In this document: one piece after another, positions 350 through 24,000 of the stretch
Position numbering within the stretch: the stretch's first letter is position 1
How the letters are laid out: every line of letters begins with the position of its first letter
NCBI GenBank assembly: GCA_019058275.1
Contig: JAHLVW010000045.1
Span: 81,664-105,663 of the forward strand
DNA length: 24,000 bases
DNA from: Candidatus Heimdallarchaeota archaeon
Lineage (GTDB): Archaea; Asgardarchaeota; Heimdallarchaeia; JABLTI01
Reading direction: 5' to 3'
Notes under the pieces: model-generated
What the model was told of the DNA's origin: nothing
The model's input: only the letters and a program-made list of their open reading frames with translations
Database searches by the model: none
Program-made: the position numbers and the translations under genes

Positions 350-426
350 GCCACTGTGGCTCAGCCTGGTAGAGCGACAGACTTGTAATCTGTTGGTCAG
401 GGGTTCAAATCCCCTCAGTGGCTCCA
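350..426 (+). tRNA. tRNA-Thr, anticodon UGU, with genomically encoded CCA
   Basis: Hand-folded cloverleaf: acceptor GCCACTG/CAGTGGC, D arm GCTC-AGCCTGGTA-GAGC, anticodon stem ACAGA/TCTGT with loop CT-TGT-AA, T arm AGGGG-TTCAAAT-CCCCT, discriminator T, then CCA (424-426). A T5 run follows at 432-436. Confidence 0.93.
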
Positions 427-3354: not shown

Positions 3355-3885
3355 TCAAAGAACTATTAGCTGAAAAATGTATGAAATTGGGAACCAATCA
3401 TATCGTCGCATTTCAAATCCAGAATGTCCCTCTTTAGCACATATAGCCTCATATGCATCTTCACAAACATCATCTAACCAAGATAGAACTCCATAACCAT
3501 TTTCAAGATATGTAAAGAATAAGTGAAACATTCCATGTACACCATCCTTATAATACCAATGCAAATCAACACCAAATTTCCCTTCAGCTTCGACAAAAGA
3601 TTCTGGGTAGAAACCCCATAATTGTAAGTGATTATTATGTTCATTTTTGTATTCAAAATATATACCTAAGTTCCAAGAATAGCATGGTAACGCCCAGAAA
3701 AAGACATAAGTATTATCATTATCAGCATCCTTACAAATTCTTATTGTCCAATCATGACATTCTGACCAATCTATAATATTTATCCATTCATCAAACCAAT
3801 ACGAATAATATGAATTGCCAACTAAAAAGAAATAAGAATAATTATCAAATTATAACAAAATGAAAAACAAAAAGTGATATTGCAT
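3355..3885 (-). pseudogene. Aromatic-rich hypothetical protein gene with an in-frame TAA at codon 12
   Basis: The minus-strand frame reads ATG(3885) MQYHFLFFILL-TAA(3852-3850)-FDNYSYFFLVGNSYYSYWFDEWINIIDWSECHDW...HWYYKDGVHGMF...QLIVL, with the stop codon at 3355-3357. That gives 164 stop-free codons after the TAA, but the first ATG/GTG/TTG in them is the TTG at 3564. Confidence 0.6.
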
Positions 3886-11109: not shown

Positions 11110-11186
11110 GGCCGGGTAGTCTAGCACGGTATGATACTTGCTTTGGGAGTAAGTGGTCGCGGATTCAAATTCCGCCCCGGCCACCA
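11110..11186 (+). tRNA. tRNA-Pro, anticodon UGG, with encoded CCA
   Basis: Acceptor GGCCGGG/CCCGGCC, anticodon stem CTTGC/GTAAG with loop TT-TGG-GA, T arm GCGGA-TTCAAAT-TCCGC, discriminator A, CCA at 11184-11186. Confidence 0.9.
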
Positions 11187-11261: not shown

Positions 11262-11882
11262 TCATCTTTTCATTTTTATTGGATCATTTCTCTCTTCATC
11301 ATCTATTATTATAAACACTCCAACATTTCTTTTGATATATTCCTCTGTCCATTCTTTCTTAATCCTCCATCCCCCTGTTGCAAACACACCATTATCCATA
11401 TCGTAGAATGGTACATGTGTGTGGCTGATGATTAGTTTGTCTGTTGTCAATATCATTGGCAAGAAGTCAGAGCCTTTGTTTACTAATCGATTTTTTAGTG
11501 CATTTGCTGCTTGCCCCCATGTTTCATCTGCTCTTTTCACTAAACCGATATTATGTCCATGACAAACAATAATTCGCCCTTCCTTTGTGTTTAATATTGC
11601 CCATGGTAATACTTGAATGGTTGGGCAATCGAATAATATATTTCCTTCATGCCCCATCCCACCTGTTATGAAAATTATTTTTTCTTTCCATTTTTTATTG
11701 TCTATCCATTTTAAGAATCTCTTTAGCGCATTTTTTCCTTTTTCATCATAAGCATCTATAAAGTCGCCATTTAATATTATGAGATCTACTTTACTTGCAA
11801 CACTTTCTATTGCTTCTTTAAACTCCTCCTCTAAGCAACCATCTGCTCCTAAATGCGTATCACTAAATATCCCTGTCATCAT
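11262..11882 (-). CDS. Calcineurin-like metallophosphoesterase (MPE; candidate nuclease/phosphodiesterase)
   Basis: All five MPE motifs appear in order: SDTHLG (DxH), NGDFID (GDxxD), GGMGHEG (GNHE-like variant), VCHGHN (GH), ISHTHVP (GHxH-like). The start overlaps the helicase stop by 17-20 nt. AAGGAAAG SD. Confidence 0.82.
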   Translation of the reverse strand: MMTGIFSDTHLGADGCLEEEFKEAIESVASKVDLIILNGDFIDAYDEKGKNALKRFLKWIDNKKWKEKIIFITGGMGHEGNILFDCPTIQVLPWAILNTKEGRIIVCHGHNIGLVKRADETWGQAANALKNRLVNKGSDFLPMILTTDKLIISHTHVPFYDMDNGVFATGGWRIKKEWTEEYIKRNVGVFIIIDDEERNDPIKMKR

Positions 11883-14220
11883 CTTTCCTTATCATCTCCT
11901 CAAGCATTTTTCTTGTGCTGTCTTTTACTTTTTCTGAAGTATTACTCGTTATTTGACTTATTTCCTCATCTGCACTCTCTTGCAATAAGTCATGCATTGC
12001 TCTTAACACTCGCTTTATTCTTGTAAAAACCGCTTCAGCATTTCCTAACTCCCCTCCTCGATCATAAAGGGCAATCTTGTTTTCATAATAATTTGTGTAT
12101 GTACGAAATGATGACTCTGAGATATGAAGCTCTAATTCAATGCTTTTCATCAGCAATTCCTTTAACAATCTTATTGCTTGTTTCTTTTGTTCTTTTGAAA
12201 GAGCGTTTGTAAGACTTGCTACCTCAATAAGCATTCCACTTGTTTTTTCATCCCAAATGTGATTTTGTAGTTCATTTTCTCTTTTTTCCCTATTAATTAC
12301 TAATGGCGTTTCATTTTGAGTTGGACTCGTTGATTGGCTCTCAAGTAACTTCCCATCTTTTGAGTATCTCATTATTTCACTTGTTTCCCAACGAATGATC
12401 ATCTCACCAAATCGTATTGTTAGCTTCTCAAGTTCCTGCACTCTTGATTGCCCGTCAATGATAAAAAGAGGTGGTTTCATCCTGTTTCGTTCAACTGCTG
12501 TTTTGTTTATGTTAAGTTTATCAACAATTACTTTTTCGTTAGCTAACCTTTTTACTCTGTAAACTTTACCTTTACTTCCTAGATGTAATAGGTTCCCTGG
12601 TAGGGCTGAAAAGATTATGCGGCGCTCATCTATCGAAGCAATTTTCTCACTCTGATTTTCGTTAGTATTGTCTATTATCTCCCATCGTGGTTCTATCGAG
12701 CGGATTCGATGTTTCCTGATAAAAGCATTGACCCCATTTCTATTGGCAATAATCAAAGTCCTTTCAATAAAGGGCAAGTGATTGTTTTCAGTTGAAAGTA
12801 AACCTTTTGCAAACAATAATGCTATAGCTGTTCGTGTAATACTAGAATCTAATTCCTCTTTGCAAAAAGATAAAATATCATCAATCTTAGTTATGCCCAA
12901 AACCACCCTCAAGAGTACGAATGCTTGTGTTCTTTGCAGAGCTTTTGAGTCAAAGAGTATTCGTTCTGTTTTATTTTCTGTTAGAATCTCTTCTATTTTT
13001 TTGGGGTGATTCAAATAACAATTATCAATTGCTTTTTCATTATTGAATACTAATGAAAAATTCTTTTTCTTAGAAATATCTGAAAACCTTAATCTTCCCA
13101 ATCGTTGTAATAGACCATTTACTCCTGTAATTGGCCATGAAATATTTACTATATGAACGATATTTGGTATATCCATACCCAGCTCTAGTAATGATGTCGT
13201 AAAAACAAACCTTATTGTGCCATTATAAATTCCCTTCAGAATGTCTGTTTTTTCTTGACCAGTTAATTGACTATTAATACAAGCAAATGGCGAATGCCTT
13301 TGTAGGATTTCATCAGGTATGTTTGTTTTTTTCTTAAATAGCTCATTACATTTTGCTACCAACTCACCTACCTTTTGGATATCATCAACAAAGATCACGC
13401 AAGCCCCTTTTACTCTTCGCAAGTAAGGGTCTAACTTCTCTAATAGCAAATCTTCAATTGATTCTGGTTGAAGAATCATTACTCGAATAGTTCCTCTTGT
13501 TGCATTTCCGGTTATTATTTGAGCAGTTGGAAGGAATTTATCACGAAAGGTTTCTACTTCTTTTACTGTTGCAGAAGCTAGAACTACTCTTACTCTTGAA
13601 TTTATCTTTTTCAAGATCGCAATCATTTCTCTAATATGTGCTAGGTACCCTCCTGAACCTGCATGTATCTCATCAACAACAAAGACCCCAACATTAAGGA
13701 GCCAACTAAGAAAATCCTCATTGCCTTCTTTAAAAAAGCGATAGAACAATTTGTCTATGGTTGCTAGGAGGATTTTAGGTTTCTTCTTCTCTATTACTTC
13801 AATTTCTTTTCGAGTTAAATCTCCATTATATCTGCTATATGTTATCTTTTTTCCAGTTACTTCAAAGATCTTATTGCAATATTTTGCAATACGTTGTTCT
13901 TGATCCTCAGCAAGCTGTTTTGTTGGGTAGATTATAACAGCACAGTCTATTCTATTATTAGCAATGTCCTCAAAAATTGGAAATAAAAATGATTCAGATT
14001 TTCCTGAACCTGTTCCAACTGCGAGAAAACAATCATTTCTTTTGAGAATTGTGCTAATCGCTTCTAATTGATATTTATAGAGTTTATATGGCAATAATTC
14101 TTGGACACTTTTACCAATTATTTTCAAACCAACATCATCATCACCTACATAATAATCAGACACCTCACAATTTGATGGTGGTAGATCAAACACTGATTTC
14201 ACAGGAATTCCTTTTGACAT
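11863..14220 (-). CDS. SF2 DExH-box helicase with winged-helix and cysteine-less DUF1998-like C-terminal region (YprA/MrfA/Hrq1/DrmA-B-like)
   Basis: Motif I VGTGSGKS, Ia YPTKQLAEDQ, II VVDEIH, III ASAT, V TTSLLELGMDIP, VI QRLGRLRF. C-terminal IALYDRGGELGNAE resembles the LYD..PGG.G signature of DUF1998. The ATG at 14220 is chosen (GGAGGGATAAAG-ATG) rather than the upstream extension to 14262. Confidence 0.85.
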   Translation of the reverse strand: MSKGIPVKSVFDLPPSNCEVSDYYVGDDDVGLKIIGKSVQELLPYKLYKYQLEAISTILKRNDCFLAVGTGSGKSESFLFPIFEDIANNRIDCAVIIYPTKQLAEDQEQRIAKYCNKIFEVTGKKITYSRYNGDLTRKEIEVIEKKKPKILLATIDKLFYRFFKEGNEDFLSWLLNVGVFVVDEIHAGSGGYLAHIREMIAILKKINSRVRVVLASATVKEVETFRDKFLPTAQIITGNATRGTIRVMILQPESIEDLLLEKLDPYLRRVKGACVIFVDDIQKVGELVAKCNELFKKKTNIPDEILQRHSPFACINSQLTGQEKTDILKGIYNGTIRFVFTTSLLELGMDIPNIVHIVNISWPITGVNGLLQRLGRLRFSDISKKKNFSLVFNNEKAIDNCYLNHPKKIEEILTENKTERILFDSKALQRTQAFVLLRVVLGITKIDDILSFCKEELDSSITRTAIALLFAKGLLSTENNHLPFIERTLIIANRNGVNAFIRKHRIRSIEPRWEIIDNTNENQSEKIASIDERRIIFSALPGNLLHLGSKGKVYRVKRLANEKVIVDKLNINKTAVERNRMKPPLFIIDGQSRVQELEKLTIRFGEMIIRWETSEIMRYSKDGKLLESQSTSPTQNETPLVINREKRENELQNHIWDEKTSGMLIEVASLTNALSKEQKKQAIRLLKELLMKSIELELHISESSFRTYTNYYENKIALYDRGGELGNAEAVFTRIKRVLRAMHDLLQESADEEISQITSNTSEKVKDSTRKMLEEMIRKDDDRDI

Positions 14221-14222
14221 CT

Positions 14223-14774
14223 TTATCCCTCCACCAATCTTGCGCTGATAATGAACTCCCAAATTAACTCAACTTTATTTTTCAGAAATTTTTTGAATCC
14301 ATCATCGAAACCTTCCGGTGAGTATGCTTCAACTATTTCATCAACAGCTAAATCAATCATATCAATTTGATTATCTTCTTCTATAAATTCCACTTGACTA
14401 AGCATTTCTTTGATTCCCTGTTGAAGGAGTTCTTCCTGCTTCCTCATAGCAAAATTTCTTTCTTGCCTTTCTGCTATTTCATCAAGTCTTTGATATTCAA
14501 TTAACATTTCAGGTGGTAACTCTTTTCCAGTGGTCAAGCATAGATATAGCTTATTTAATTGAACCAATTTATCTTCCTTGAGCCAATATCTGTAAAGATT
14601 TCTACTTCCAACACGCTTGATCAAGCCATCTTGTTGTAATACCTCGAGAGTAAGATAGGTCTCACTGAGTGGTAAATTTACTTCAATAGAAATCTCTTTG
14701 GCACTCTTAGGATAATTGATACCATGTTTATTGTATTCCTCAAGCAAAAAGAGCATTACTCCAAGTTTATCCAT
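14223..14774 (-). CDS. wHTH DNA-binding protein with acidic/coiled C-terminal half
   Basis: wHTH-like N-terminus: YPKSAKEISIEVNLPLSETYLTLEVLQQDGLIKRVGSRNLYRYWL. The stop TAA at 14223-14225 lies 2 nt before the helicase ATG. An alternative ATG at 14756 shares one base with the upstream stop (TAATG). Confidence 0.7.
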   Translation of the reverse strand: MDKLGVMLFLLEEYNKHGINYPKSAKEISIEVNLPLSETYLTLEVLQQDGLIKRVGSRNLYRYWLKEDKLVQLNKLYLCLTTGKELPPEMLIEYQRLDEIAERQERNFAMRKQEELLQQGIKEMLSQVEFIEEDNQIDMIDLAVDEIVEAYSPEGFDDGFKKFLKNKVELIWEFIISARLVEG

Positions 14775-16252
14775 GATACAGGCAACTCCAACATTGTTTC
14801 ACGAAATTCATTAGTAATTGGTGATAATTGGCCAATTGTTCTACCATGCTTTTGATGATGTTTTTCTTCTCTATCAGGAAAGAGGAAAGCTAACTTTTCA
14901 AAATTAGTAATTTCATGATTCACTCTTTGTTCTATGTTTTTTGATCTCATCCAAACTAATGGTTGAAAATCTAATTTTTGTGTCTCCTCTTGGCAGATTT
15001 GGAAAATATTATCATTCAAATTCTCCCTAATCCCAGTTGGCAAACATTCCCACTCTAATACTAATCGCCACAATTTAACTGCTAAATTATCCCCGAAAAT
15101 TGAGTTTTTTATGGATAGGTGCTCCTCCTCTAACCTATTGCCTACATTTGTCAAGAGAAGATCAAATCTGTCGATTTCTTCCCTACAAGCATCTCTAAAA
15201 GAAGAATACTGTTTTCCTCGATAATAACAAGGGTTTTCGAAGAGTTCTTCCTTCTTTTCAAAAAGGATTTCGTATCCGTATCGTGTTACAGCGTAAGTTC
15301 TCCCCCCTTTGAACGCTGTTAACCGCTTAATTTCATCATGAGTAATTTCTTCAGCTAAGATGGCATCAACTAGCATGTAGTGACCTGCTTTCTTCAGTGA
15401 ATCACCAAAATCTAATGGTAACCCCATCCAAGAGAGATCAGAATAATAACTAAAGTGAGAGAAACCACCAACACCTAAATAGTTAATGCCTTTCTCTTCC
15501 AGAAGAGTCCATATTTCTTCTTCACAGAATTGATATTCTGTATTAAACAATACATCAGTAGGTGTTTGAGCCATACTGTTGAAGTTTCCAATCATGCGCT
15601 TGTGTCTGTAGAGACGGTCAGAAACTCTATGGCTTATTCCAAAATCATGTGGAGCTATTAGTTCATTCGTGAACTTCCAGAGAACCTCAGCAGCAAAACC
15701 TTCTGCAGAATTGCATAACTTGTTTGTATGACTATGATAACCAAAGAGATAAGCGTCACCGATTTTATCAATATGTTTCTTTAATGCTCTCTGATCAGGT
15801 AACATTTCTTGCAAAGTAAAAATAAGACTAAGATCACTCTTCATAGCTGTTTTCATGTAAAGATTATTGAAACCATTTCCTAATCTTATGGCATCAACAT
15901 AGCCTGCTCTCTTTGGTTCAATTCGTTCAACATTAAACCAACCGCAGAGGTTTGTTTTCCGCTCGTAATAGCAACCATGATCAAGTAATCGTTGCTTAAT
16001 CTCATCATCTATACCAGCATAATCAAAGATGTACTTGATATCTTGTAGCTTATATCTTACATCTCCAATATACAAATCATCATTGATTATTCGCACATCA
16101 TATCCTTGATAAATTGGAATTCCTAGTTTTGTTTTTACTTGCTTAATTTCATCTGCTTCCAAACCAGTTAATTTGTATATTTGATCATATAGTATATTGT
16201 TGCTATCTTTCACACATCGTATATACTGTTTTGTTTTATTTCTATTAGTCAT
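14756..16252 (-). CDS. Hypothetical protein (498 aa), no family recognised; His-rich motifs
   Basis: ATG at 16252 (MTNRNKTKQY), preceded by a purine-rich GAGAGATAAAA, 22 nt after the upstream stop. Contains GYHSHTNK, APHDFGISHR and GVGGFSHFSYY. The upstream extension to 16366 overlaps the preceding gene and is rejected. Confidence 0.7.
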   Translation of the reverse strand: MTNRNKTKQYIRCVKDSNNILYDQIYKLTGLEADEIKQVKTKLGIPIYQGYDVRIINDDLYIGDVRYKLQDIKYIFDYAGIDDEIKQRLLDHGCYYERKTNLCGWFNVERIEPKRAGYVDAIRLGNGFNNLYMKTAMKSDLSLIFTLQEMLPDQRALKKHIDKIGDAYLFGYHSHTNKLCNSAEGFAAEVLWKFTNELIAPHDFGISHRVSDRLYRHKRMIGNFNSMAQTPTDVLFNTEYQFCEEEIWTLLEEKGINYLGVGGFSHFSYYSDLSWMGLPLDFGDSLKKAGHYMLVDAILAEEITHDEIKRLTAFKGGRTYAVTRYGYEILFEKKEELFENPCYYRGKQYSSFRDACREEIDRFDLLLTNVGNRLEEEHLSIKNSIFGDNLAVKLWRLVLEWECLPTGIRENLNDNIFQICQEETQKLDFQPLVWMRSKNIEQRVNHEITNFEKLAFLFPDREEKHHQKHGRTIGQLSPITNEFRETMLELPVSWINLE

Positions 16253-16274: not shown

Positions 16275-18350
16275 TCAATTTCTTTCTTGAATGAGCTTAA
16301 ATGATGAACCGCACCTTGGACACCTTGTTGGTGTTGAACCTTGTTGCGGAAAGGGTGCTGTACCAAATGCTTCTAAGGGGATCATTTCACCTCGCTCATC
16401 ATAACAGAATCGGCAAAAATGGGTATATTCTTCCTCGCCCTCTTCTGTTTGTCCATCAAATCTCTTTGGATTTGATCTATAGAATTCATCAATGGAAAAT
16501 TGCATTTCTATTGTTTCCTCTTCTAGGAATGCTTCGCACGCAATAGTATCTTTTCTGAGCATCGAGGTTGTAATATAATCCATTTTTTCTTTTGGTACTT
16601 TTCGTTCTGCTGTTTCTCTTACATCCCGCCAAAAATTACAATGATTTTTTTCATAATAATAGCAGTCTCCACATTTCTTATAGAAATACTCAGGAATCTC
16701 TTTTGTTGAATAATATGTTATTCTTTTCCCTTTTGGTGGTTTACCTGTAACAGTTTTTAGTGATAATAAATCGTTTTTCTCAAGACTAACTAATGCTCGT
16801 TCAACATCTGAACTTAATAATGAAAGGTTTAAAGCAATCAGAGTAAGTGTCATTGGAATTGTTGCATATTCTAGCTCTTCTTTGACAGCTTGTTCGATTG
16901 CTAACCGGTCTTTCTTTCCTATTAAAGGTACATCCATTAAGTCAAGGTTTTGTCCTATTGCTTTGCTGATAAGGCCAAAATTCTTTTTTGCTTCGGGTGT
17001 CATGTGCTCTTGAAGACTTGCCAATAATATTGATACTTTGAAAATAGTAAAGCTATCTTGTGTTCTTGAAAGAATTTTAGCAATAACCTCATCTTCATCA
17101 TTACCTTTAGTTTTCAACCTTCCAAGTACCATTTGTAAATCATCATAAGCTAATTTTCCATCAGTAAAATTATGGAAGATTTCCGAGATACAATTCCAAT
17201 CCAAAGTATCATTTTGTGTTCTATTTTTAATATTCAATAAAACGCCCATGGGATCTTCTCGTATTTCTTTGAAATATGTTGAAGCTATAAGGAACTTCTT
17301 GCCAAATGGCGTAAGAGTGTATATCCCTGAATTTTCTCTTACTTTAGAAATTAACGCAAAGTCACCTAGTGATTTTTGATATTTATCAAATAGACCTTCA
17401 GAGAAATTCCTTGGTTTAAACAATATTTCAATTAACATTTTTTGAAGAAAATCATGACTAGCTTCTAATTTGGATATATTTTGGAGTAATCGACAAATGA
17501 GTGAGTTTTGAATTCGTTGAATCATTTTGCTTTTTGATGGTTGTCCAGAATAGAGTCTTAACAACATTAAATATGGGAGAACAGATTGAAATTCTTCTTT
17601 AAGGACCTCTGGATTCAAATCTGAATTAAAGTAAAATTCGTGATCTCCTGAAATTTTAACCGCTGTTGTTACTATTAACATGTTCTTTTGTTCATCTAAA
17701 GGAACTAAACCTGGAGAGATGTAATGCATTCTGATGTTTTGGTTATTCGCTTTTCTCTTGAAAAACAAAATGCCATCTATATCAAAAGTAGTGAAGCTTT
17801 TTCTGGTTCTTCTTAGCGAGTCATTTTCTCTTAAAGGATCAACAAAAATATATGCGTTTGTATGTGGGAGATTAATTCTGTTCTTTAATTTAACATCAGA
17901 ACTTTTCCGATAAAGTAAGTTTCGAAGCAGACAATCATAGCTTGTAATTATCACACAATCATTTGCTGATGGGTAGCTGTTCCCTTTGAATTTTGAAAAA
18001 GTGGACGCAACTCGAATGGCATATTTATTTGATAAGGGATAAAAACCTTCATTGGATAAATTCTCAGTGGAAAAATTAGTTTCTTGATGAAGATTGAGCA
18101 TAGTGAATATCTTTCTTGCTTCATCAGCTGTTCGCACAACGATTATAGAAGATGAGTTGGCGAATCGCGAATTTAGAAGAGCTGAAGTAACAGCAATTTG
18201 TAATTGTTCATCAAGATCTGGTGTCACAAATAGCATATCTTCATCACAGCTTACTGCTTTCCGAATAGTAGCATTATCAACACCTCTTGGGAAGGGATAA
18301 TCTCGAAGAACTGTAGTAATGGCTTTTGGTAAAGCATTCACAAATCTCAT
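16275..18350 (-). CDS. Large multidomain protein (691 aa): degenerate SF2-helicase-like N-domain, wHTH, and two C-terminal Cys clusters (zinc-ribbon-like)
   Basis: ATG at 18350 (GGAGATTAAT-ATG) lies 1 nt after the upstream TAA. The N-terminus follows SF2 RecA1 spacing, but the Walker A position reads VTPDLDEQ and the DExH position reads FVDPLRE. wHTH-like LSSDVERALVSLEKNDLLSLKTV. Cys clusters: CGDC-x7-HC and CRFC-x28-CPRC. Confidence 0.72.
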   Translation of the reverse strand: MRFVNALPKAITTVLRDYPFPRGVDNATIRKAVSCDEDMLFVTPDLDEQLQIAVTSALLNSRFANSSSIIVVRTADEARKIFTMLNLHQETNFSTENLSNEGFYPLSNKYAIRVASTFSKFKGNSYPSANDCVIITSYDCLLRNLLYRKSSDVKLKNRINLPHTNAYIFVDPLRENDSLRRTRKSFTTFDIDGILFFKRKANNQNIRMHYISPGLVPLDEQKNMLIVTTAVKISGDHEFYFNSDLNPEVLKEEFQSVLPYLMLLRLYSGQPSKSKMIQRIQNSLICRLLQNISKLEASHDFLQKMLIEILFKPRNFSEGLFDKYQKSLGDFALISKVRENSGIYTLTPFGKKFLIASTYFKEIREDPMGVLLNIKNRTQNDTLDWNCISEIFHNFTDGKLAYDDLQMVLGRLKTKGNDEDEVIAKILSRTQDSFTIFKVSILLASLQEHMTPEAKKNFGLISKAIGQNLDLMDVPLIGKKDRLAIEQAVKEELEYATIPMTLTLIALNLSLLSSDVERALVSLEKNDLLSLKTVTGKPPKGKRITYYSTKEIPEYFYKKCGDCYYYEKNHCNFWRDVRETAERKVPKEKMDYITTSMLRKDTIACEAFLEEETIEMQFSIDEFYRSNPKRFDGQTEEGEEEYTHFCRFCYDERGEMIPLEAFGTAPFPQQGSTPTRCPRCGSSFKLIQERN

Positions 18351-18351
18351 A

Positions 18352-18954
18352 TTAATCTCCCTTTTCTTTTTGTGTTGAATAGTTACCAATTGCTGTGCTC
18401 CCACAATATTCCTTGATAATTGCTCTTAAATTTTCTTTTAATTCATCTTGTGACAAATGACTATTTTCTACTAAACTGTTCAAAAGTGTCTCAATAAGTT
18501 CTGATAAGTACCCCTTGTCTGTTTCTAATTGATTTAGAATATATGCTAACTCCTCTCTGTTCTTTTGTAATTGCTTAATTCCTCTCATAGAAGGTTTCAT
18601 CTGTTTTATTGTAATAGCAATTTGGAGATCAGGATAGTAAATATTTAGAATAAAACGGAATAATGGATTATTGATATTAACTTGATAAGCTTGTGTTTTT
18701 GAACGCTGAAGTTTGGTTAAAATATTGTTTTTCACTAGAAAGCTAACTAAATTATCTATTGTCCTTGAAGATAAGGATAGTTTTTCATCTATTTTGAATG
18801 CTTTTAATGAAGGATAATAATATACACCCTGATTTAATGCCTTATCAATCAAATATTTGCAGAAGATAGCTACTGAGTTTGTTACTTTTATTTTTGAACT
18901 GAATAATCCCTCATGAAAATATTGCTCTTGTACAACTGATATTTCAGAAGGCAT
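18352..18954 (-). CDS. wHTH DNA-binding protein (200 aa), first gene of the operon
   Basis: HTH-like LSLSSRTIDNLVSFLVKNNILTKLQRSK, with a helical C-terminal half. ATG at 18954. Confidence 0.65.
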   Translation of the reverse strand: MPSEISVVQEQYFHEGLFSSKIKVTNSVAIFCKYLIDKALNQGVYYYPSLKAFKIDEKLSLSSRTIDNLVSFLVKNNILTKLQRSKTQAYQVNINNPLFRFILNIYYPDLQIAITIKQMKPSMRGIKQLQKNREELAYILNQLETDKGYLSELIETLLNSLVENSHLSQDELKENLRAIIKEYCGSTAIGNYSTQKEKGD

Positions 18955-18993: not shown

Positions 18994-19060
18994 AATAAAT
19001 TCGCTAAAAAACAGAAAGCAAAGCAAAATCAAAAAAATAAATCGCGGAAAAACAGAAACG
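18994..19060. promoter_or_regulatory. Pair of about 25-nt direct repeats upstream of the operon promoter (candidate operator)
   Basis: AATAAATTCGCTAAAAAACAGAAAG (18994-19018) and AATAAATCGCGGAAAAACAGAAACG (19036-19060). About 21 identities with one 1-nt indel; offset is 41-42 bp. Confidence 0.45.
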
Positions 19061-19457: not shown

Positions 19458-21056
19458 TCAGTTTTTTGTTTGGAAGAATGTTTTAAGGTAAAGTTTTAGA
19501 ACAGAATTTAGTATCTTATTATTAGTAACTTTTATACCAAAATAGTCGCTTATATTTTTGTAAAGGATTTCTTTATTTTCAGATGTAGACAGGATAAGAA
19601 GATATCTATTCCGAAGTGATAAATTTCTTACAAGAGAGAGTAATTTTTCATTAGGTTGTAAGTCTAACCTTGCTTGTGTTTTACGAGAATGAAATAAATC
19701 AAGCTTATACTTATGTAAAAAAGGCATCAAATTTATTGGTGTACTAGAAATCATTAGTAATAGTTTTTCCAAAAGGGGTATTGGGAGACTATCACTATAT
19801 TCATATGAAGCTAATTTTCCTTTGGAAATCCCAAGGTATTCAGCTAAGTCTTGTTGTGTCCAAGAAAAATTATTCCGAACATTTCGTAAGAAAATAGTAC
19901 ATCCTACGACATGAAGAGTAGTAAGAAGGGAAAAGTTGAAGTAGTTTTCACCTTGTAATGAGAGAATCATTTTTGGATTAAAATCATAGATCAAAAAGTC
20001 TGTTGAGTGGTTTACTAGATTATACCTTTGTCGAGTTAGATATTCGTTAAAGTCTATCTTTTTAATCGGATGCCTTGGATGTAATACATTACTAAGGATG
20101 TCTTTTGAAATAGCTTTAATATTAACGGTGTACCCTGTTCCTAAATCTACTTCTCTTTCAGTTAATGAATATTTAATTTTATTTACATCTAAAACTCTTG
20201 CGAATTCATAAGCAAAAAATTTAGAGGAAGAGCTGAAACTAACATTGTCTTTATAACTGCCGTCTGCATCTAGTGCTCCAGACCAAAACTCCCAACGAAG
20301 ATCCTCGTCTGAAACAAAAATAAGTGGTTCTCTTAAAGCATGATACTTTTTACCGGTAATAGGTTGATCAGTTAAAAAATTGACTAATCGCACAAGCCAC
20401 TTATTATTTAGATGAAGTAACCAGACTTTTTTCTCACCGGTAACAGGCCCTTCAAATCCAAAAAGAGTTTTAGCTAGTGTTTGCATCATTTCCATGTGTT
20501 CTTTTGAAAAATCAACTATCACCACATTATGATAATTTAGATGCCCATCACCAATAACTGAGCCAAGAAAATAAGCTAAATCTCTACTTATTCTTGTAGG
20601 CATGTGAAAGTGTTCTCCCCGAGCAGATTGGAATGGAACATAATCTTGTGTTAGGAATTCTTGCCAGTGATCACTTAACCTGAATAGTGGAAAAGGTAAG
20701 CGTTTCTGATTCTCAGTGTAATCAATGATCTTTTGCTGCCACTTCTTAATGGAATAATCAATAGCTGTATCTTGAAAATAATGATGACTTCTCTCAGCTA
20801 ATGTTAATGATCGCTTACGTAATTTGCTCGCTAAATCTACTGTTAAAGAAATGTATGGTAATCTTTGAATCAGCCGTTCTCCTGCAAGAAAGTCGTGCTT
20901 GCGGATCATTATAGAGTAAAGGTTAAGTTTTCCTTGTTCTAGAAATATTTTCTCTTGCTTTTTTTGTTCTATTAACTTGTTCGCTGTTAACCATTCATTC
21001 TTTGGTGTTGGTTCCGTGTCTATCAGTAATGGATCATTTCGCCAGTTAAGCGTCAT
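19458..21056 (-). CDS. Free-standing double-motif LAGLIDADG endonuclease-like protein fused to an XRE-type HTH
   Basis: Motif 1 LAYFLGSVIGDGHL and motif 2 RWEFWSGALDADGSY lie about 95 aa apart, and both keep the acidic residue. HTH: FSWTQQDLAEYLGISKGKLASYE. The ATG at 21056 is preferred to the TTG at 21059. Confidence 0.75.
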   Translation of the reverse strand: MTLNWRNDPLLIDTEPTPKNEWLTANKLIEQKKQEKIFLEQGKLNLYSIMIRKHDFLAGERLIQRLPYISLTVDLASKLRKRSLTLAERSHHYFQDTAIDYSIKKWQQKIIDYTENQKRLPFPLFRLSDHWQEFLTQDYVPFQSARGEHFHMPTRISRDLAYFLGSVIGDGHLNYHNVVIVDFSKEHMEMMQTLAKTLFGFEGPVTGEKKVWLLHLNNKWLVRLVNFLTDQPITGKKYHALREPLIFVSDEDLRWEFWSGALDADGSYKDNVSFSSSSKFFAYEFARVLDVNKIKYSLTEREVDLGTGYTVNIKAISKDILSNVLHPRHPIKKIDFNEYLTRQRYNLVNHSTDFLIYDFNPKMILSLQGENYFNFSLLTTLHVVGCTIFLRNVRNNFSWTQQDLAEYLGISKGKLASYEYSDSLPIPLLEKLLLMISSTPINLMPFLHKYKLDLFHSRKTQARLDLQPNEKLLSLVRNLSLRNRYLLILSTSENKEILYKNISDYFGIKVTNNKILNSVLKLYLKTFFQTKN

Positions 21057-21439: not shown

Positions 21440-23599
21440 ATGTCTAACAAACGATCAAAAAACAAGCAAGTGGTTTATTCAAGTAATAAACCGGGGAGAG
21501 GAGTGAAATTCTCTGTTTATACTAACGGAGAAATTGTAATAGAAGGAGTAGGCTCTCAATATGGGTTAAACATTCCTGCTCAGTTAAAACAATGGTTAAA
21601 TCTTCCAGAAAGAAATGACTCTTTCAATTGGAAACTGAAAGCTGATCTTGAAATTATTTACGAGGATAAAAAGCATTTCTTGAAAGATATTTCAGTAACC
21701 ATTCTATTTAAATCGAAGAAATGGTTCATTAGTCCAAGTAATGTTCTTATCGAAGGAAAAAATCTTCGCAGCATACTTTCTGAGAGATCTGAATTGATCT
21801 GTTCTTTAATTTTACCTAGAAAATATTGGAGTAAAAAATATCTCCAAAGTATAAATATATTCAATTCTTTTAACTACAGCGAAAAATCAAATTTCAAAAC
21901 AATAGCTATTGGTGGAAAAGCAACAGGATTTTATGAAGTAATTCAAGACAACAAAAAACAATTTTTTATTAAATTAGAAACAAGTATGAGTGAATCAGGA
22001 GCTATACAGTTTCCAGCAGAATTAGCTCAGGTATTTAAGAATTGGACTAGCAACAAAGAATTATTCCTTTGTTTGTTTGAAGATGGACAGAAGCAAATAG
22101 TTGAAGCATCATTTGTTAAAGATAAAAGTAGACCTGAACGCATTCGAAAAGTATTGAATTTTTCTTATAATGGTGAAAGAAAAAATGTTTCCGTAATTTG
22201 TCACTCAAGTAATTTAGAATTATCATCTAAGATGAAGCAAGATGTTGAACTTAAACAAATATTAGTAAAGTTTGGTTTTCAATTAAAATCACTCAAATCA
22301 AACGTTTTTCCATTGGGAAGTCATAAAAACAAAAGATTTGAAGAAAAAGTAAGATTACTTTTTACTAATGCTTTCAATAAAACTGATGCGATAGTCAGAG
22401 ATGAGGTGGCTTTATCACCTAATTATTTAAAATCTCTCCCAATTGAAAGCCAGTATACTTTTGATTTGCTAGTATTTTATAAAAACAAGCAATTACCAAC
22501 ACCATCAAAACTTCTACTTCTAATTGAGATAAAATCATCCTTAGGTAAGAGCAAAACCAAAGTAATTAATGATAGTATAGCTAACTTGAAACATTATCAA
22601 ACGCATTTAGGAGAGGAAAATGTTCTACCAATTTTTGTTATGAATGCTGTATTCAATAAAAGAAAAAAAGAAATTATTGATATGTATAGTATTAAAAACG
22701 GTATTTTGATTCTTGACAATGATAAATTATGTTTATTCCGAGATCAACCTGAATTGTTAATTGAAACTATTCTTTCATTTAAACAAAAAATATCTCTACT
22801 GCAAAATAATCCTTTAGTTACATATCATCCACAAACTAAAGAAATTGTCAGTATAGAGAAGCTAAGAAATGAAGCATTAACATTACTTATCAATAAATCG
22901 AAGGGGGAGTTAGTTGACCGAAAAACTTTGAATTCTTATTGCATGTTAATGAATATTCGTAAAGCAGATTTCAATCGGTTATACCATTACTATGAGTCAG
23001 CTGTTAATGAAAATCATTCGATGACATCTTCATTAACTCCTCCTATTTATAAAAATAAAAGTACAATTATTTACAAAGCCATACACAATCATTTGTGTGA
23101 AAACGGTTCTGTTTCCATGATTCAAAAAATACCACAACAATGCTTTAATCGATCAAACTCTGAATTAAGACTGCATTCTCAACAAATCTATGATTTTCTA
23201 CCAAAAGAAATGCATGTTGTGGGTTTGAAAGAATATAACCATCAAGGTAAAACCTATGAAAAAATCATTCAAAAAGAACTAGAATCAAAAAAATATGAAG
23301 TAATACCTAACATCTTATTCTATTTTGCATTTCGATTAATTGAAATTGATTTATTTGCATTGAGAGAAAAGGAGCTTCTTCTTACCAGCTGCAAAAATAT
23401 GAGTAGTTTTGTTGACTTCCCACAAACTACAGTGGCGATTAAAAGAGCTGTTAAATTATTATCTTATAGAAAACAATTATTGAATGCAGATAAAGGTTTA
23501 GTATGTGTTAGAGTAAATAAACAATTTAGAGATAAATTCAAAAAGAAATTCAATAATAAAGTGTTTGCTAAGGATATTGAAGTAAAGATTACTGATTAG
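21440..23599 (+). CDS. Large protein (719 aa) with a central PD-(D/E)xK nuclease signature and a second degenerate one at the C-terminus
   Basis: FEEKVRLLF ... YTFDLLVFYKNKQLPTPSKLLLLIEIKSS gives an E...D...ExK pattern. The C-terminus has YEKIIQKELESKKYEVIP ... LIEIDLFALREKELLLTSCK (D...SxK). Two N-terminal segments look like AbrB/SpoVT units (GLNIPAQLKQWLNLP and AIQFPAELAQVFKNW). The ATG at 21440 is preferred to the GTG at 21431. TAG stop. Confidence 0.7.
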   Translation: MSNKRSKNKQVVYSSNKPGRGVKFSVYTNGEIVIEGVGSQYGLNIPAQLKQWLNLPERNDSFNWKLKADLEIIYEDKKHFLKDISVTILFKSKKWFISPSNVLIEGKNLRSILSERSELICSLILPRKYWSKKYLQSINIFNSFNYSEKSNFKTIAIGGKATGFYEVIQDNKKQFFIKLETSMSESGAIQFPAELAQVFKNWTSNKELFLCLFEDGQKQIVEASFVKDKSRPERIRKVLNFSYNGERKNVSVICHSSNLELSSKMKQDVELKQILVKFGFQLKSLKSNVFPLGSHKNKRFEEKVRLLFTNAFNKTDAIVRDEVALSPNYLKSLPIESQYTFDLLVFYKNKQLPTPSKLLLLIEIKSSLGKSKTKVINDSIANLKHYQTHLGEENVLPIFVMNAVFNKRKKEIIDMYSIKNGILILDNDKLCLFRDQPELLIETILSFKQKISLLQNNPLVTYHPQTKEIVSIEKLRNEALTLLINKSKGELVDRKTLNSYCMLMNIRKADFNRLYHYYESAVNENHSMTSSLTPPIYKNKSTIIYKAIHNHLCENGSVSMIQKIPQQCFNRSNSELRLHSQQIYDFLPKEMHVVGLKEYNHQGKTYEKIIQKELESKKYEVIPNILFYFAFRLIEIDLFALREKELLLTSCKNMSSFVDFPQTTVAIKRAVKLLSYRKQLLNADKGLVCVRVNKQFRDKFKKKFNNKVFAKDIEVKITD

Positions 23600-23611: not shown

Positions 23612-24000
23612 ATGTTCATTGATAAAATTACTAGTAATTCATTACCTCCTCCAGGTGTTGGAATGACAATTAGTTTTCTTTCACTTGGAAAAGAAACAGA
23701 TACAAGTGTTGTAGTTAAGCATATCAAATCGGTTAAAAAAGCAAGTCGAAGACTTTATTGTTTATTATATGTCCATGAATACCAAGAATTAACAATTATC
23801 CAAAAAAGGGAAATTTTCAAACCTTTTATTGATGAAGAATTTGAATCTTTAAAGTATCACATGGTACTTTTTTCAGGATTATATCATATTACTGAAAATA
23901 TATCAAAATTACAAGATCTTGGAATGAATCATCCTAATGAACTTGTCCGTTGTGCTGCTATTTGGTCTCGAGCAAAATTAGGTGACCATAAGGATTTATT
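23612..24000 (+). CDS. Hypothetical protein with a HEAT/PBS-lyase-like repeat (partial; continues beyond the window)
   Basis: The ATG at 23612 is 12 nt after the upstream TAG. The frame is open to the window end. HPNELVRCAAIWSRAKLGDHKDL resembles a HEAT-like repeat (VR.AA..aLg.lGd). Confidence 0.55.
   Translation, partial: MFIDKITSNSLPPPGVGMTISFLSLGKETDTSVVVKHIKSVKKASRRLYCLLYVHEYQELTIIQKREIFKPFIDEEFESLKYHMVLFSGLYHITENISKLQDLGMNHPNELVRCAAIWSRAKLGDHKDL

Follow-up and report, generated by a model that had tools for sequence, protein, structure and literature searches.

A predicted single-lobed pseudo-helicase beside a diverged Cas1-like protein in tRNA-adjacent gene islands of Heimdallarchaeota

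Introduction

What role is left to a protein that keeps the outline of a helicase and has lost the catalytic motifs? The question is raised by gene B, the second gene of a six-gene minus-strand operon (genes A to F) in a 24,000-nucleotide stretch of the Candidatus Heimdallarchaeota contig JAHLVW010000045.1 (the whole stretch analysed, hereafter the window; G+C ~31%). An earlier reading of the sequence, the original prediction, had taken its product for an inactivated superfamily 2 (SF2) helicase core fused to a winged helix-turn-helix (wHTH) and two zinc-ribbon-like cysteine clusters, acting as scaffold or sensor for the intact helicase encoded further down the operon. The analysis reported here points to a different partner. 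Gene B would be a non-catalytic descendant of SF2 helicases, with one RecA1-like lobe, two winged helices, a helical region and two Cys4 modules, dedicated to a Cas1-type integrase encoded by the next gene, C. Its most probable task is to bind DNA and to position the integrase, or to bridge it, at the termini of the element, at the tRNA gene that serves as target, or at both, a role resembling that of Cas2 or Cas2-3 for the Cas1 of CRISPR systems, or that of the built-in helix-turn-helix (HTH) domain for casposases. Genes B and C, a MrfA/YprA-like helicase (gene E) and a small metallophosphoesterase (gene F) would then constitute the four-gene core of a ~13-16 kb island beside tRNA genes. We give a probability of about 0.55 to the view that gene B is an architectural, DNA-binding subunit which serves a Cas1-like integrase on a casposon-like island beside tRNA genes.

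The predicted fold of gene B

The reading frame of gene B starts with an ATG at 18350, with GGGAG 8 nt upstream, and the starts of its homologues agree with this choice; in a mechanical list of open reading frames (ORFs) it is extended as far as the GTG at position 18404. The ORF, its length and the four N-terminal stretches singled out at first, DEDMLFVTPDLDEQLQIAVTSAL (residues 36-58), IIVVRTADEARKIF (69-82), CVIITSYDCLLRNL (132-145) and AYIFVDPLRE (166-175), are all present. The AlphaFold2 model, built on 16 sequences, has a predicted local distance difference test (pLDDT) of 68 and a predicted template modelling score (pTM) of 0.62. Its N-terminal part is an alpha/beta lobe in which strand 39-42 is followed by TPDLDEQ in place of the P-loop, strand 68-72 and helix 75-85 correspond to motif Ia, strand 133-137 and helix 138-149 correspond to motif Ic, strand 166-170 carries DPLRE at the position of motif II, with FVDPLRE replacing DExH, and strand 207-212 carries ISPG at the position of motif III (SAT). 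The correspondence is, in the model, more than chance, with each quoted stretch falling on the strand or helix of the matching SF2 motif. Hence the order of SF2 motifs proposed for the first ~200 residues stands, except that the stretch labelled motif Ib fits motif Ic better.

Comparison of the model with the Protein Data Bank (PDB) by Foldseek retrieved as best matches only SF2 helicases and related RecA-fold motor ATPases (Mfd, SecA). The top match is Hel308 (2p6r, E 1e-5, probability 1.0), and further ones are Hjm, the PolQ helicase domain, Brr2, ASCC3, Hef, MDA5/LGP2 and eIF4AIII. Hel308, PolQ and Brr2 outrank DEAD-box proteins over ~700 aligned columns; the match to UAP56 covers 256 columns at a root-mean-square deviation (rmsd) of 5.9, and helicases of the Foldseek viral library align over 204-239 columns at rmsd 6-8, a size fitting a single lobe. 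A RecA-like fold of SF2 type at the N-terminus was therefore recovered by model and fold search, as had been expected, but to speak of a helicase core overstates it, one lobe only being visible. A second RecA-like lobe with motifs IV-VI is not seen in the moderate-confidence model, where residues 236-556 are made of helices and two beta-hairpins with no second parallel sheet.

The lobe is followed by a winged helix (residues 245-356) and an all-helical region (361-472), an order that may correspond to the layout of Hel308-type enzymes. The helical region may represent the ratchet, or helical bundle, of Ski2-like helicases. Around the first wing residues L346, G350, L354, A356, T358 and Y359 are invariant, and residues 314-362 give weak matches to HTH_45 and Sso10a. 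A second wHTH is modelled further on, with weak matches to PF0610-like_N in 6 of the 18 family members and to ScpB in 2, so that the single wHTH first proposed is present but is one of two.

The eight cysteines, C560, C563, C571 and C605 in the first cluster and C646, C649, C677 and C680 in the second, all lie in the C-terminal 132 residues (560-691) and are invariant in the alignment of 18 sequences. Both clusters had been recognised at the outset, with spacings that were each off by one: the first reads CGDC-x6-HC and not CGDC-x7-HC, which makes it CxxC-x7-C and, in full, CxxC-x7-C-x33-C, and the second is CRFC-x27-CPRC and not CRFC-x28-CPRC. H570 is not conserved, and C605 is the fourth ligand of the first cluster. 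Ribbon-like strands are modelled for the second cluster, residues 615-691 being beta-rich with pLDDT ~80 and giving weak Zn_ribbon_5 matches in 7 of the 18 members, but the stretch of the first (558-614) is modelled with low confidence.

Conservation and loss of the catalytic motifs

A search of 5.8 billion proteins yielded 18 homologues of gene B. Those that carry a name belong to Candidatus Heimdallarchaeota, and all six genome loci are metagenome-assembled genomes (MAGs) of Heimdallarchaeota. The protein is kept at full length across three subfamilies at 38-81% identity. None of the 18 homologues, including a relative at 22% identity, has GK[ST] at the Walker A position or DExx at motif II, and the replacing residues are themselves conserved (D38, Q49, D171, P172); in the distant relative P0024 the position of motif II is occupied by FYQPLNH. 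A broader profile that included this distant protein brought in no new family members, and no relative with intact motifs, from the database searched. The replacement of the Walker A lysine and of the DExH residues, noticed originally in a single sequence, is thus a property of the family, and since the motifs are degenerate in every homologue gene B must have been inactive since ancient times rather than recently mutated. Of the two outcomes that would have refuted the original prediction, a missing RecA-like fold and homologues with intact motifs, neither was obtained. The loop ASTFSKFKGN is strongly conserved and sits where SF2 helicases touch nucleic acid; its position and conservation together suggest that a contact with DNA or RNA has been retained.

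Two other origins found no support. A recent duplication of the neighbouring helicase is not backed by hhalign, which was empty between the two families, nor is a viral origin backed by phage genomes or IMG/VR contigs, where searches returned no relatives.

A Cas1-like neighbour and its tie to gene B

The AlphaFold model of gene C (pLDDT 58) has strands at 45-98 followed by helices. Searched against the PDB with Foldseek, it has Cas1 or casposase structures in all of the first 19 places, and nothing else is significant; they include the Cas1 of A. fulgidus (4n06, E 6e-5) and, as third-best match, a casposase (6opm, E 1.6e-4). The candidate catalytic residues are E184, H266, D281 and D284, of which the first three are invariant in the gene C family and the fourth is D or E. 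In hhalign the best local match to E. coli Cas1, which is not significant (E 0.23), places GFSH...LDFGD on GFVH...YDIAD and sets H266, D281 and D284 on E. coli H208, D218 and D221. No significant match to gene C was returned by sequence searches of Pfam, NCBIfam, PADLOC or the PDB. On the strength of its modelled fold gene C is a very diverged member of the Cas1 family, and it probably keeps the active site.

In each of the ~12 loci genes B and C are direct neighbours, and their order does not change. Moreover, an exhaustive search found them joined in one 1215-aa protein, P0024, whose first 719 residues are B-like and whose residues 720-1215 match gene C (BLASTP E 9e-26). On its contig (L009) an E-like helicase gene comes immediately after the fusion, and an F-like phosphoesterase gene after that; gene D is absent between the fusion and the helicase. 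In a further protein, P0025, the wHTH and cysteine module alone is joined to a C-like segment, which has a weak match to Pfam Cas_Cas1 (E 0.0046). The second wHTH module of gene B recurs in P0024, P0025 and P0027. The last of these (L011, 659-1396) is a stand-alone 245-aa protein made of the wHTH and two Cys clusters, encoded beside an MtmB methyltransferase gene, and so the module also exists outside a Cas1 context. From the fusion and the adjacency in every locus it follows that the closest partner of B is the Cas1-like integrase, with which it would form a physical complex.

The islands and their tRNA genes

The cluster comprises up to nine genes and was found only in Heimdallarchaeota MAGs, in at most three copies per genome; one genome has three diverged copies (L001, L020, L021) and another MAG has two (L003, L006). 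The order A, B, C, D, E, F is kept in every locus long enough to display it. Neighbouring genes abut or overlap by at most 20 nt, the stop codon of gene A abutting the start of gene B, and only B and C are separated, by 22 nt.

A tRNA gene or tRNA-like sequence borders on the end of gene F in six of the ~11 loci with sequence beyond the cluster. In four of them 7-110 nt separate this gene end from the 3' end of an oppositely oriented tRNA, which is tRNA-Pro in the window and tRNA-Ala (TGC) in L004, L008 and L021, and in L001 and L017 gene F is followed by a tRNA-like sequence with apparent introns, a tentative assignment at 17 bits in Rfam. In three loci the last 23-35 nt of the tRNA recur as direct repeats on the far side of the cluster: at 3396-3440 in L004, at 748-782 in L008 (34/35 identical) and at 1150-1184 and 478-512 in L021. 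The units delimited by the repeats measure ~13.7-16.4 kb. Upstream of the cluster in L008 lie another F gene and then a tRNA fragment, as in a tandem insertion. The flanks of L004 and L008 are 82-92% identical in DNA, and the clusters between them belong to different subfamilies, with proteins at 40-50% identity (B 40%, C 44%). No tyrosine or serine recombinase was found among the genes inside the repeat boundaries. The tRNA-Pro of the window is likely the integration target of the element, and the Cas1-like protein would be the enzyme that integrates the island.

Candidate genes at the ends of islands (364 aa in L021, 367 aa in L017, 209 aa in L004) are not recombinase-like and are mutually unrelated. 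Remnants of additional F-gene 3' ends occur in L001 (17463-17497, 2554-2589) and L017 (2295-2363, 2469-2510), together with a 42-nt inverted copy of the 5' half of the tRNA-like sequence and, in L001, a 72-nt direct copy (20613-20684); earlier insertions that were later rearranged seem to have left these traces. Directly upstream of the LAGLIDADG gene in L002 and L014 there is a tRNA-Arg (TCT) that contains an intron (3398-3503 in both loci), which are apparently the same sequence, at the cluster end opposite to the usual tRNA.

Several observations weigh against the proposed role. No significant match to gene B was found in Pfam, NCBIfam, PADLOC or the PDB, with the single protein or with family profiles, and comparison of the B family with that of the neighbouring helicase by hhalign reached a probability of 0.5%, with no sequence-level link of B to any helicase; the helicase homology therefore rests on a model of moderate confidence. 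The global template modelling scores of its matches are low (~0.26), because the orientations of the domains differ. The assignment of gene C likewise depends on a low-confidence model, whose pLDDT falls below 50 around the proposed active site, and the sequence profile of C finds no Cas1 in the PDB. Gene B is frameshifted in L004 (10001-12074) and split into three ORFs in L020 (7902-9974), with genes C to F intact in both, and may thus be dispensable, or these copies may be decaying. A tRNA at the F end is missing from about five of the ~11 loci (L002, L014, L016, L020, and L007, where it is degenerate), and the 3' end of tRNA-Pro has no second copy in the window, where the far boundary is not visible. 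Convincing terminal inverted repeats were not found, the only candidate being a 17-nt A/G-rich inverted match in L004. Finally, the repeats that flank the cluster consist of tRNA sequence, 23-35 nt of it, unlike the 14-15 bp target duplications of casposons; repeats of tRNA-internal sequence are the classic pattern of tyrosine-recombinase attachment sites.

Gene D in L004 (13578-14131) and gene E in L007 (14158-16370) are also frameshifted or fragmented. Either such broken copies are non-essential and decaying, or the MAGs were misassembled at these places.

Alternative roles

The original prediction made gene B a pseudo-helicase scaffold or sensor that regulates the intact helicase, in the manner of the inactive cassette of Brr2, and lends it a zinc module that the helicase has lost. 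Part of this withstands comparison. The helicase of gene E, with intact GTGSGKS and VVDEIH motifs, is present in the operon at every locus and comes directly after the B-C fusion in L009; Brr2 and ASCC3, which have inactive cassettes, are among the fold matches of B. The tail of gene E indeed gives only a weak MZB/DUF1998 match (E 0.023, under the cut-off) and lacks the four zinc-binding cysteines of that domain, there being no cysteine in the tails of six orthologues. However, genes C and D stand between B and the helicase, and no fusion or adjacency ties these two specifically; the stronger evidence of this kind favours gene C, which had been passed over. The loan of zinc in trans found no support, since the C-terminus of B has no detectable similarity to MZB, and the wHTH and cysteine module occurs fused directly to a Cas1-like segment (P0025) and alone (P0027), without any helicase. 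Regulation of the helicase is compatible with service to an integrase and does not exclude it; as the principal role of B we regard it as improbable, and a pairing of B with the helicase as possible but secondary.

About equally doubtful is a chromosomal, non-mobile defence system assembled from CRISPR adaptation genes without an array, in which B would sense foreign DNA and bring to it the Cas1-like nuclease, together with helicase, phosphoesterase and PD-(D/E)xK protein. Nucleases and a helicase are clustered here, gene E has PADLOC matches to Cas3, BrxH and DruE, genes for MmeI-like restriction-modification, MazE-like proteins and TnpB lie nearby, and different variants occupy one site, as happens in defence islands; in addition, Asgard CRISPR derivatives that contain Cas1 have been predicted to be defensive (PMC8730458). 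Against it, no PADLOC model matches B or C, and the framing of the cluster by repeats of the tRNA end suggests that it was integrated as one unit. Since mobile elements can carry defence islands as cargo, this alternative overlaps with the integrase-partner role preferred here.

Considerably less probable is that B acts mainly as a transcription regulator of the operon, similar to TFE or PF0610, with a RecA-like lobe used for ligand binding or oligomerisation. The two modelled winged helices and the weak PF0610-like_N and Zn_ribbon_5 matches would suit such a protein, but all the Pfam matches are below family thresholds, the operon already has two small wHTH proteins in A and D, and a fusion to an integrase would not be expected of a regulator. 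That B is a recently mutated, decaying helicase gene, as the broken copies in L004 and L020 might suggest, is refuted by the alignment, in which the three subfamilies share the same degenerate motifs and the eight invariant cysteines, and no intact homologue appears.

Comparison with known systems

As a partner of an integrase, gene B combines features of several known proteins. Ski2-like helicases of the Hel308 group (Hjm, PolQ, Brr2) are its best structural matches over the whole protein and share the RecA1-type lobe and, to judge from the model, a winged helix and a helical region after it. Unlike them B has no Walker A, DExH, discernible RecA2 lobe or sequence similarity, and it has an extra second winged helix and the two Cys4 modules. 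Non-catalytic SF2 units have a precedent in the inactive C-terminal cassette of Brr2, but that cassette keeps both lobes, whereas B is single-lobed. Like Cas2, Cas2-Cas3 and the HTH domain of casposases, B is a non-integrase unit that stands beside, or is fused to, an integrase of the Cas1 family and would be expected to hold DNA. The SF2 helicase Cas3 of type I-F systems is fused to Cas2 and binds Cas1; PDB entry 9p1d is among the Foldseek hits of gene C. Gene B differs from these in lacking the Cas2 fold and a CRISPR array and in that its helicase part is dead and single-lobed. As for gene E, it is closest to YprA among the MrfA/YprA helicases with MZB (DUF1998), sharing a weak MZB-like tail, but without the four zinc-binding cysteines, and it is partnered with a calcineurin-type phosphoesterase, whereas the partner of MrfA is the exonuclease MrfB.

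To our knowledge, casposon transposition is the one role known for Cas1 integrases besides CRISPR memory, at whose root they stand. The casposon analogy is made concrete by a described casposase that uses the T-arm sequence to target the 3' end of tRNA-Pro (PMC9939771). Like casposons, especially those of family 2 that insert at the 3' end of tRNA-Pro (PMC9939771), the islands have a Cas1-family integrase without CRISPR and lie beside the 3' end of a tRNA, and copies can be in tandem, as in L008. In contrast to casposons they have no family B DNA polymerase, no polymerase domain of any kind being present in any cluster gene, and no terminal inverted repeats were found in them; their repeats are part of the tRNA and not beyond it; and the proposed partner of their integrase is a separate protein, the pseudo-helicase, while the cluster also includes a helicase and a phosphoesterase.

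The existence of diverged Cas1 homologues in Asgard archaea is already known: highly diverse ones, some of them possibly on new mobile elements, are attributed to Makarova et al. 2020 (CRISPR J 3:156) in PMC8730458, and the present cluster may be one of those already published. The contents of Makarova et al. 2020 aside, there is, as far as checked, no description of a partner with a pseudo-helicase fold, of the fusion of B to C, of the four-gene core or of the evidence from the tRNA repeats. A bolder proposal, which we consider speculative and rather unlikely, is that of an uncharacterised class of Cas1-dependent integrative element or CRISPR-less Cas1 system, in which a dead single-lobe helicase with zinc modules replaces Cas2 and a duplication of ~35 nt of the tRNA arises, a living intermediate between casposons and CRISPR. 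If this were true, the duplication would be in the length range of a CRISPR repeat, and the intermediate between casposon transposition and CRISPR spacer integration would be found in the archaea closest to eukaryotes. Apart from this proposal, the islands appear as a third context for Cas1, with an obligatory-looking pseudo-helicase partner, a helicase-phosphoesterase pair instead of a polymerase, and targeting of tRNA genes; if confirmed, they would widen the range in which Cas1 integrases are deployed and offer a testable system for target choice and duplication length. Gene B would in itself be a clear case of an SF2 helicase reduced to a predicted non-catalytic, single-lobe DNA-binding module, and a fold or a function can be assigned to several products annotated as "hypothetical proteins" in Heimdallarchaeota.

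Accompanying genes and minor features

The features of the window that belong to the cluster are collected in Table 1.

Table 1. Position, strand and basis of assignment of the genes of the cluster, of the predicted domains of gene B and of the adjacent tRNA gene (coordinates of the window)
Feature	Position	Strand	Description	Basis
tRNA-Pro (TGG)	11110..11186	+	3' end faces the end of gene F, 76 nt off	ARAGORN; Rfam 60 bits
Gene F	11262..11882	-	206-aa calcineurin-like metallophosphoesterase, YfcE-like, last operon gene	Metallophos 1e-6; YfcE subfamily
Gene E	11863..14220	-	785-aa intact DExH helicase, MrfA/YprA type	DEAD 4.4e-29; Helicase_C 2.4e-12
Gene D	14223..14774	-	183-aa TrmB/Csa3-like wHTH	TrmB E 4.5e-4; Csa3 wHTH E 2.2e-4; conserved
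Gene C	14756..16252	-	498 aa, predicted highly diverged Cas1 homologue, N-terminal beta domain and helical domain	Foldseek; fusion in P0024
Gene B	16275..18350	-	691-aa predicted SF2-derived pseudo-helicase, two winged helices, two Cys4 modules	ORF, translation, homologues, AlphaFold model
B, RecA1-like alpha/beta lobe	17646..18350	-	residues 1-235, 7 strands	model secondary structure, Foldseek, conservation
B, first winged helix	17283..17618	-	residues 245-356	helices and beta-hairpin in model; wing in GIYTLTPFGKKFLIASTYF
B, all-helical region	16935..17270	-	residues 361-472	model
B, second wHTH	16707..16910	-	residues 481-548	helix-helix-helix-strand-strand in model
B, first Cys4 cluster	16536..16673	-	residues 560-605, CxxC-x7-C-x33-C	invariant cysteines; metal zinc or iron-sulphur
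B, zinc-ribbon-like module	16278..16508	-	residues 615-691, CxxC-x27-CxxC, conserved FKLIQ end	invariant cysteines; beta strands
Gene A	18352..18954	-	200-aa wHTH-like, first operon gene	weak HTH_Mga and Penicillinase_R matches; position conserved in all loci
LAGLIDADG-type protein	19458..21056	-	532 aa, motifs IGDGH and LDADGS, C-terminal HTH_3	LAGLIDADG_3 6.9e-6; HTH_3 3.5e-4
PD-(D/E)xK-type protein	21440..23599	+	719 aa; E607, D637, K652	alignment; weak Hjc match, E 0.24
Small gene (start)	23612..24000	+	runs off the window; ~150-230 aa elsewhere, after the 719-aa gene	homologues L001 8411, L004 6775, L008 6843

Within the operon gene F is the most conserved gene (62-79% identity), and the nearest solved structure to gene E is YprA (6znp, E 7e-20). 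No tandem CRISPR array is present in the window, and neither Cas2 nor any other Cas family was matched in the operon. In the gap of 500 nt upstream of gene A the 20-nt direct repeats AATTCGCTAAAAAACAGAAA (18998-19017) and AAATCGCGGAAAAACAGAAA (19039-19058) lie 41 nt apart and may be the operator of a wHTH protein.

The LAGLIDADG-HTH protein is found in every locus with the operon, at 47-68% identity. It is free-standing and keeps the acidic residues in both motifs; to judge from its sequence it could be an active homing endonuclease, and as such an alternative route for the spread of the island. The PD-(D/E)xK-like protein of ~720 aa, whose orthologue in L017 has a faint NERD match, usually accompanies the operon together with the small gene, of which the L001 copy has a HEAT_2 match. 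These two genes are inverted in the window with respect to L004, L008 and L021, the larger of them with respect to most other loci, and the LAGLIDADG gene is inverted in L001 and L017, so that the island evidently undergoes internal inversions. The ~720-aa gene is missing in four loci (L002, L003, L016, L020), in which TnpB/OrfB_IS605 is encoded directly upstream of the LAGLIDADG gene (L002 1658-3286, L003 4668-6281, L016 183-1376, L020 3343-4509).

Other genes vary from locus to locus. A type IIL restriction-modification enzyme of the MmeI kind is encoded beside the cluster in L008 (1037-3955, 972 aa) and L004 (626-3322, 898 aa); the L008 gene lies between the tRNA-Ala 3' fragment and the cluster, which makes the tRNA locus a hotspot with several islets. 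A different small gene stands beside the cluster in L001 (5915-6085), L002 (1363-1581), L017 (5399-5554) and L021 (2312-2488); three of its copies match MazE_antitoxin, that of L001 weakly, the 51-aa gene of L017 has no Pfam match, and no obvious toxin gene is adjacent. The flanks of the window are ordinary metabolic genes, and a tRNA-Thr (TGT; 350-426, plus strand) beside an aldo/keto reductase gene is unrelated to the cluster.

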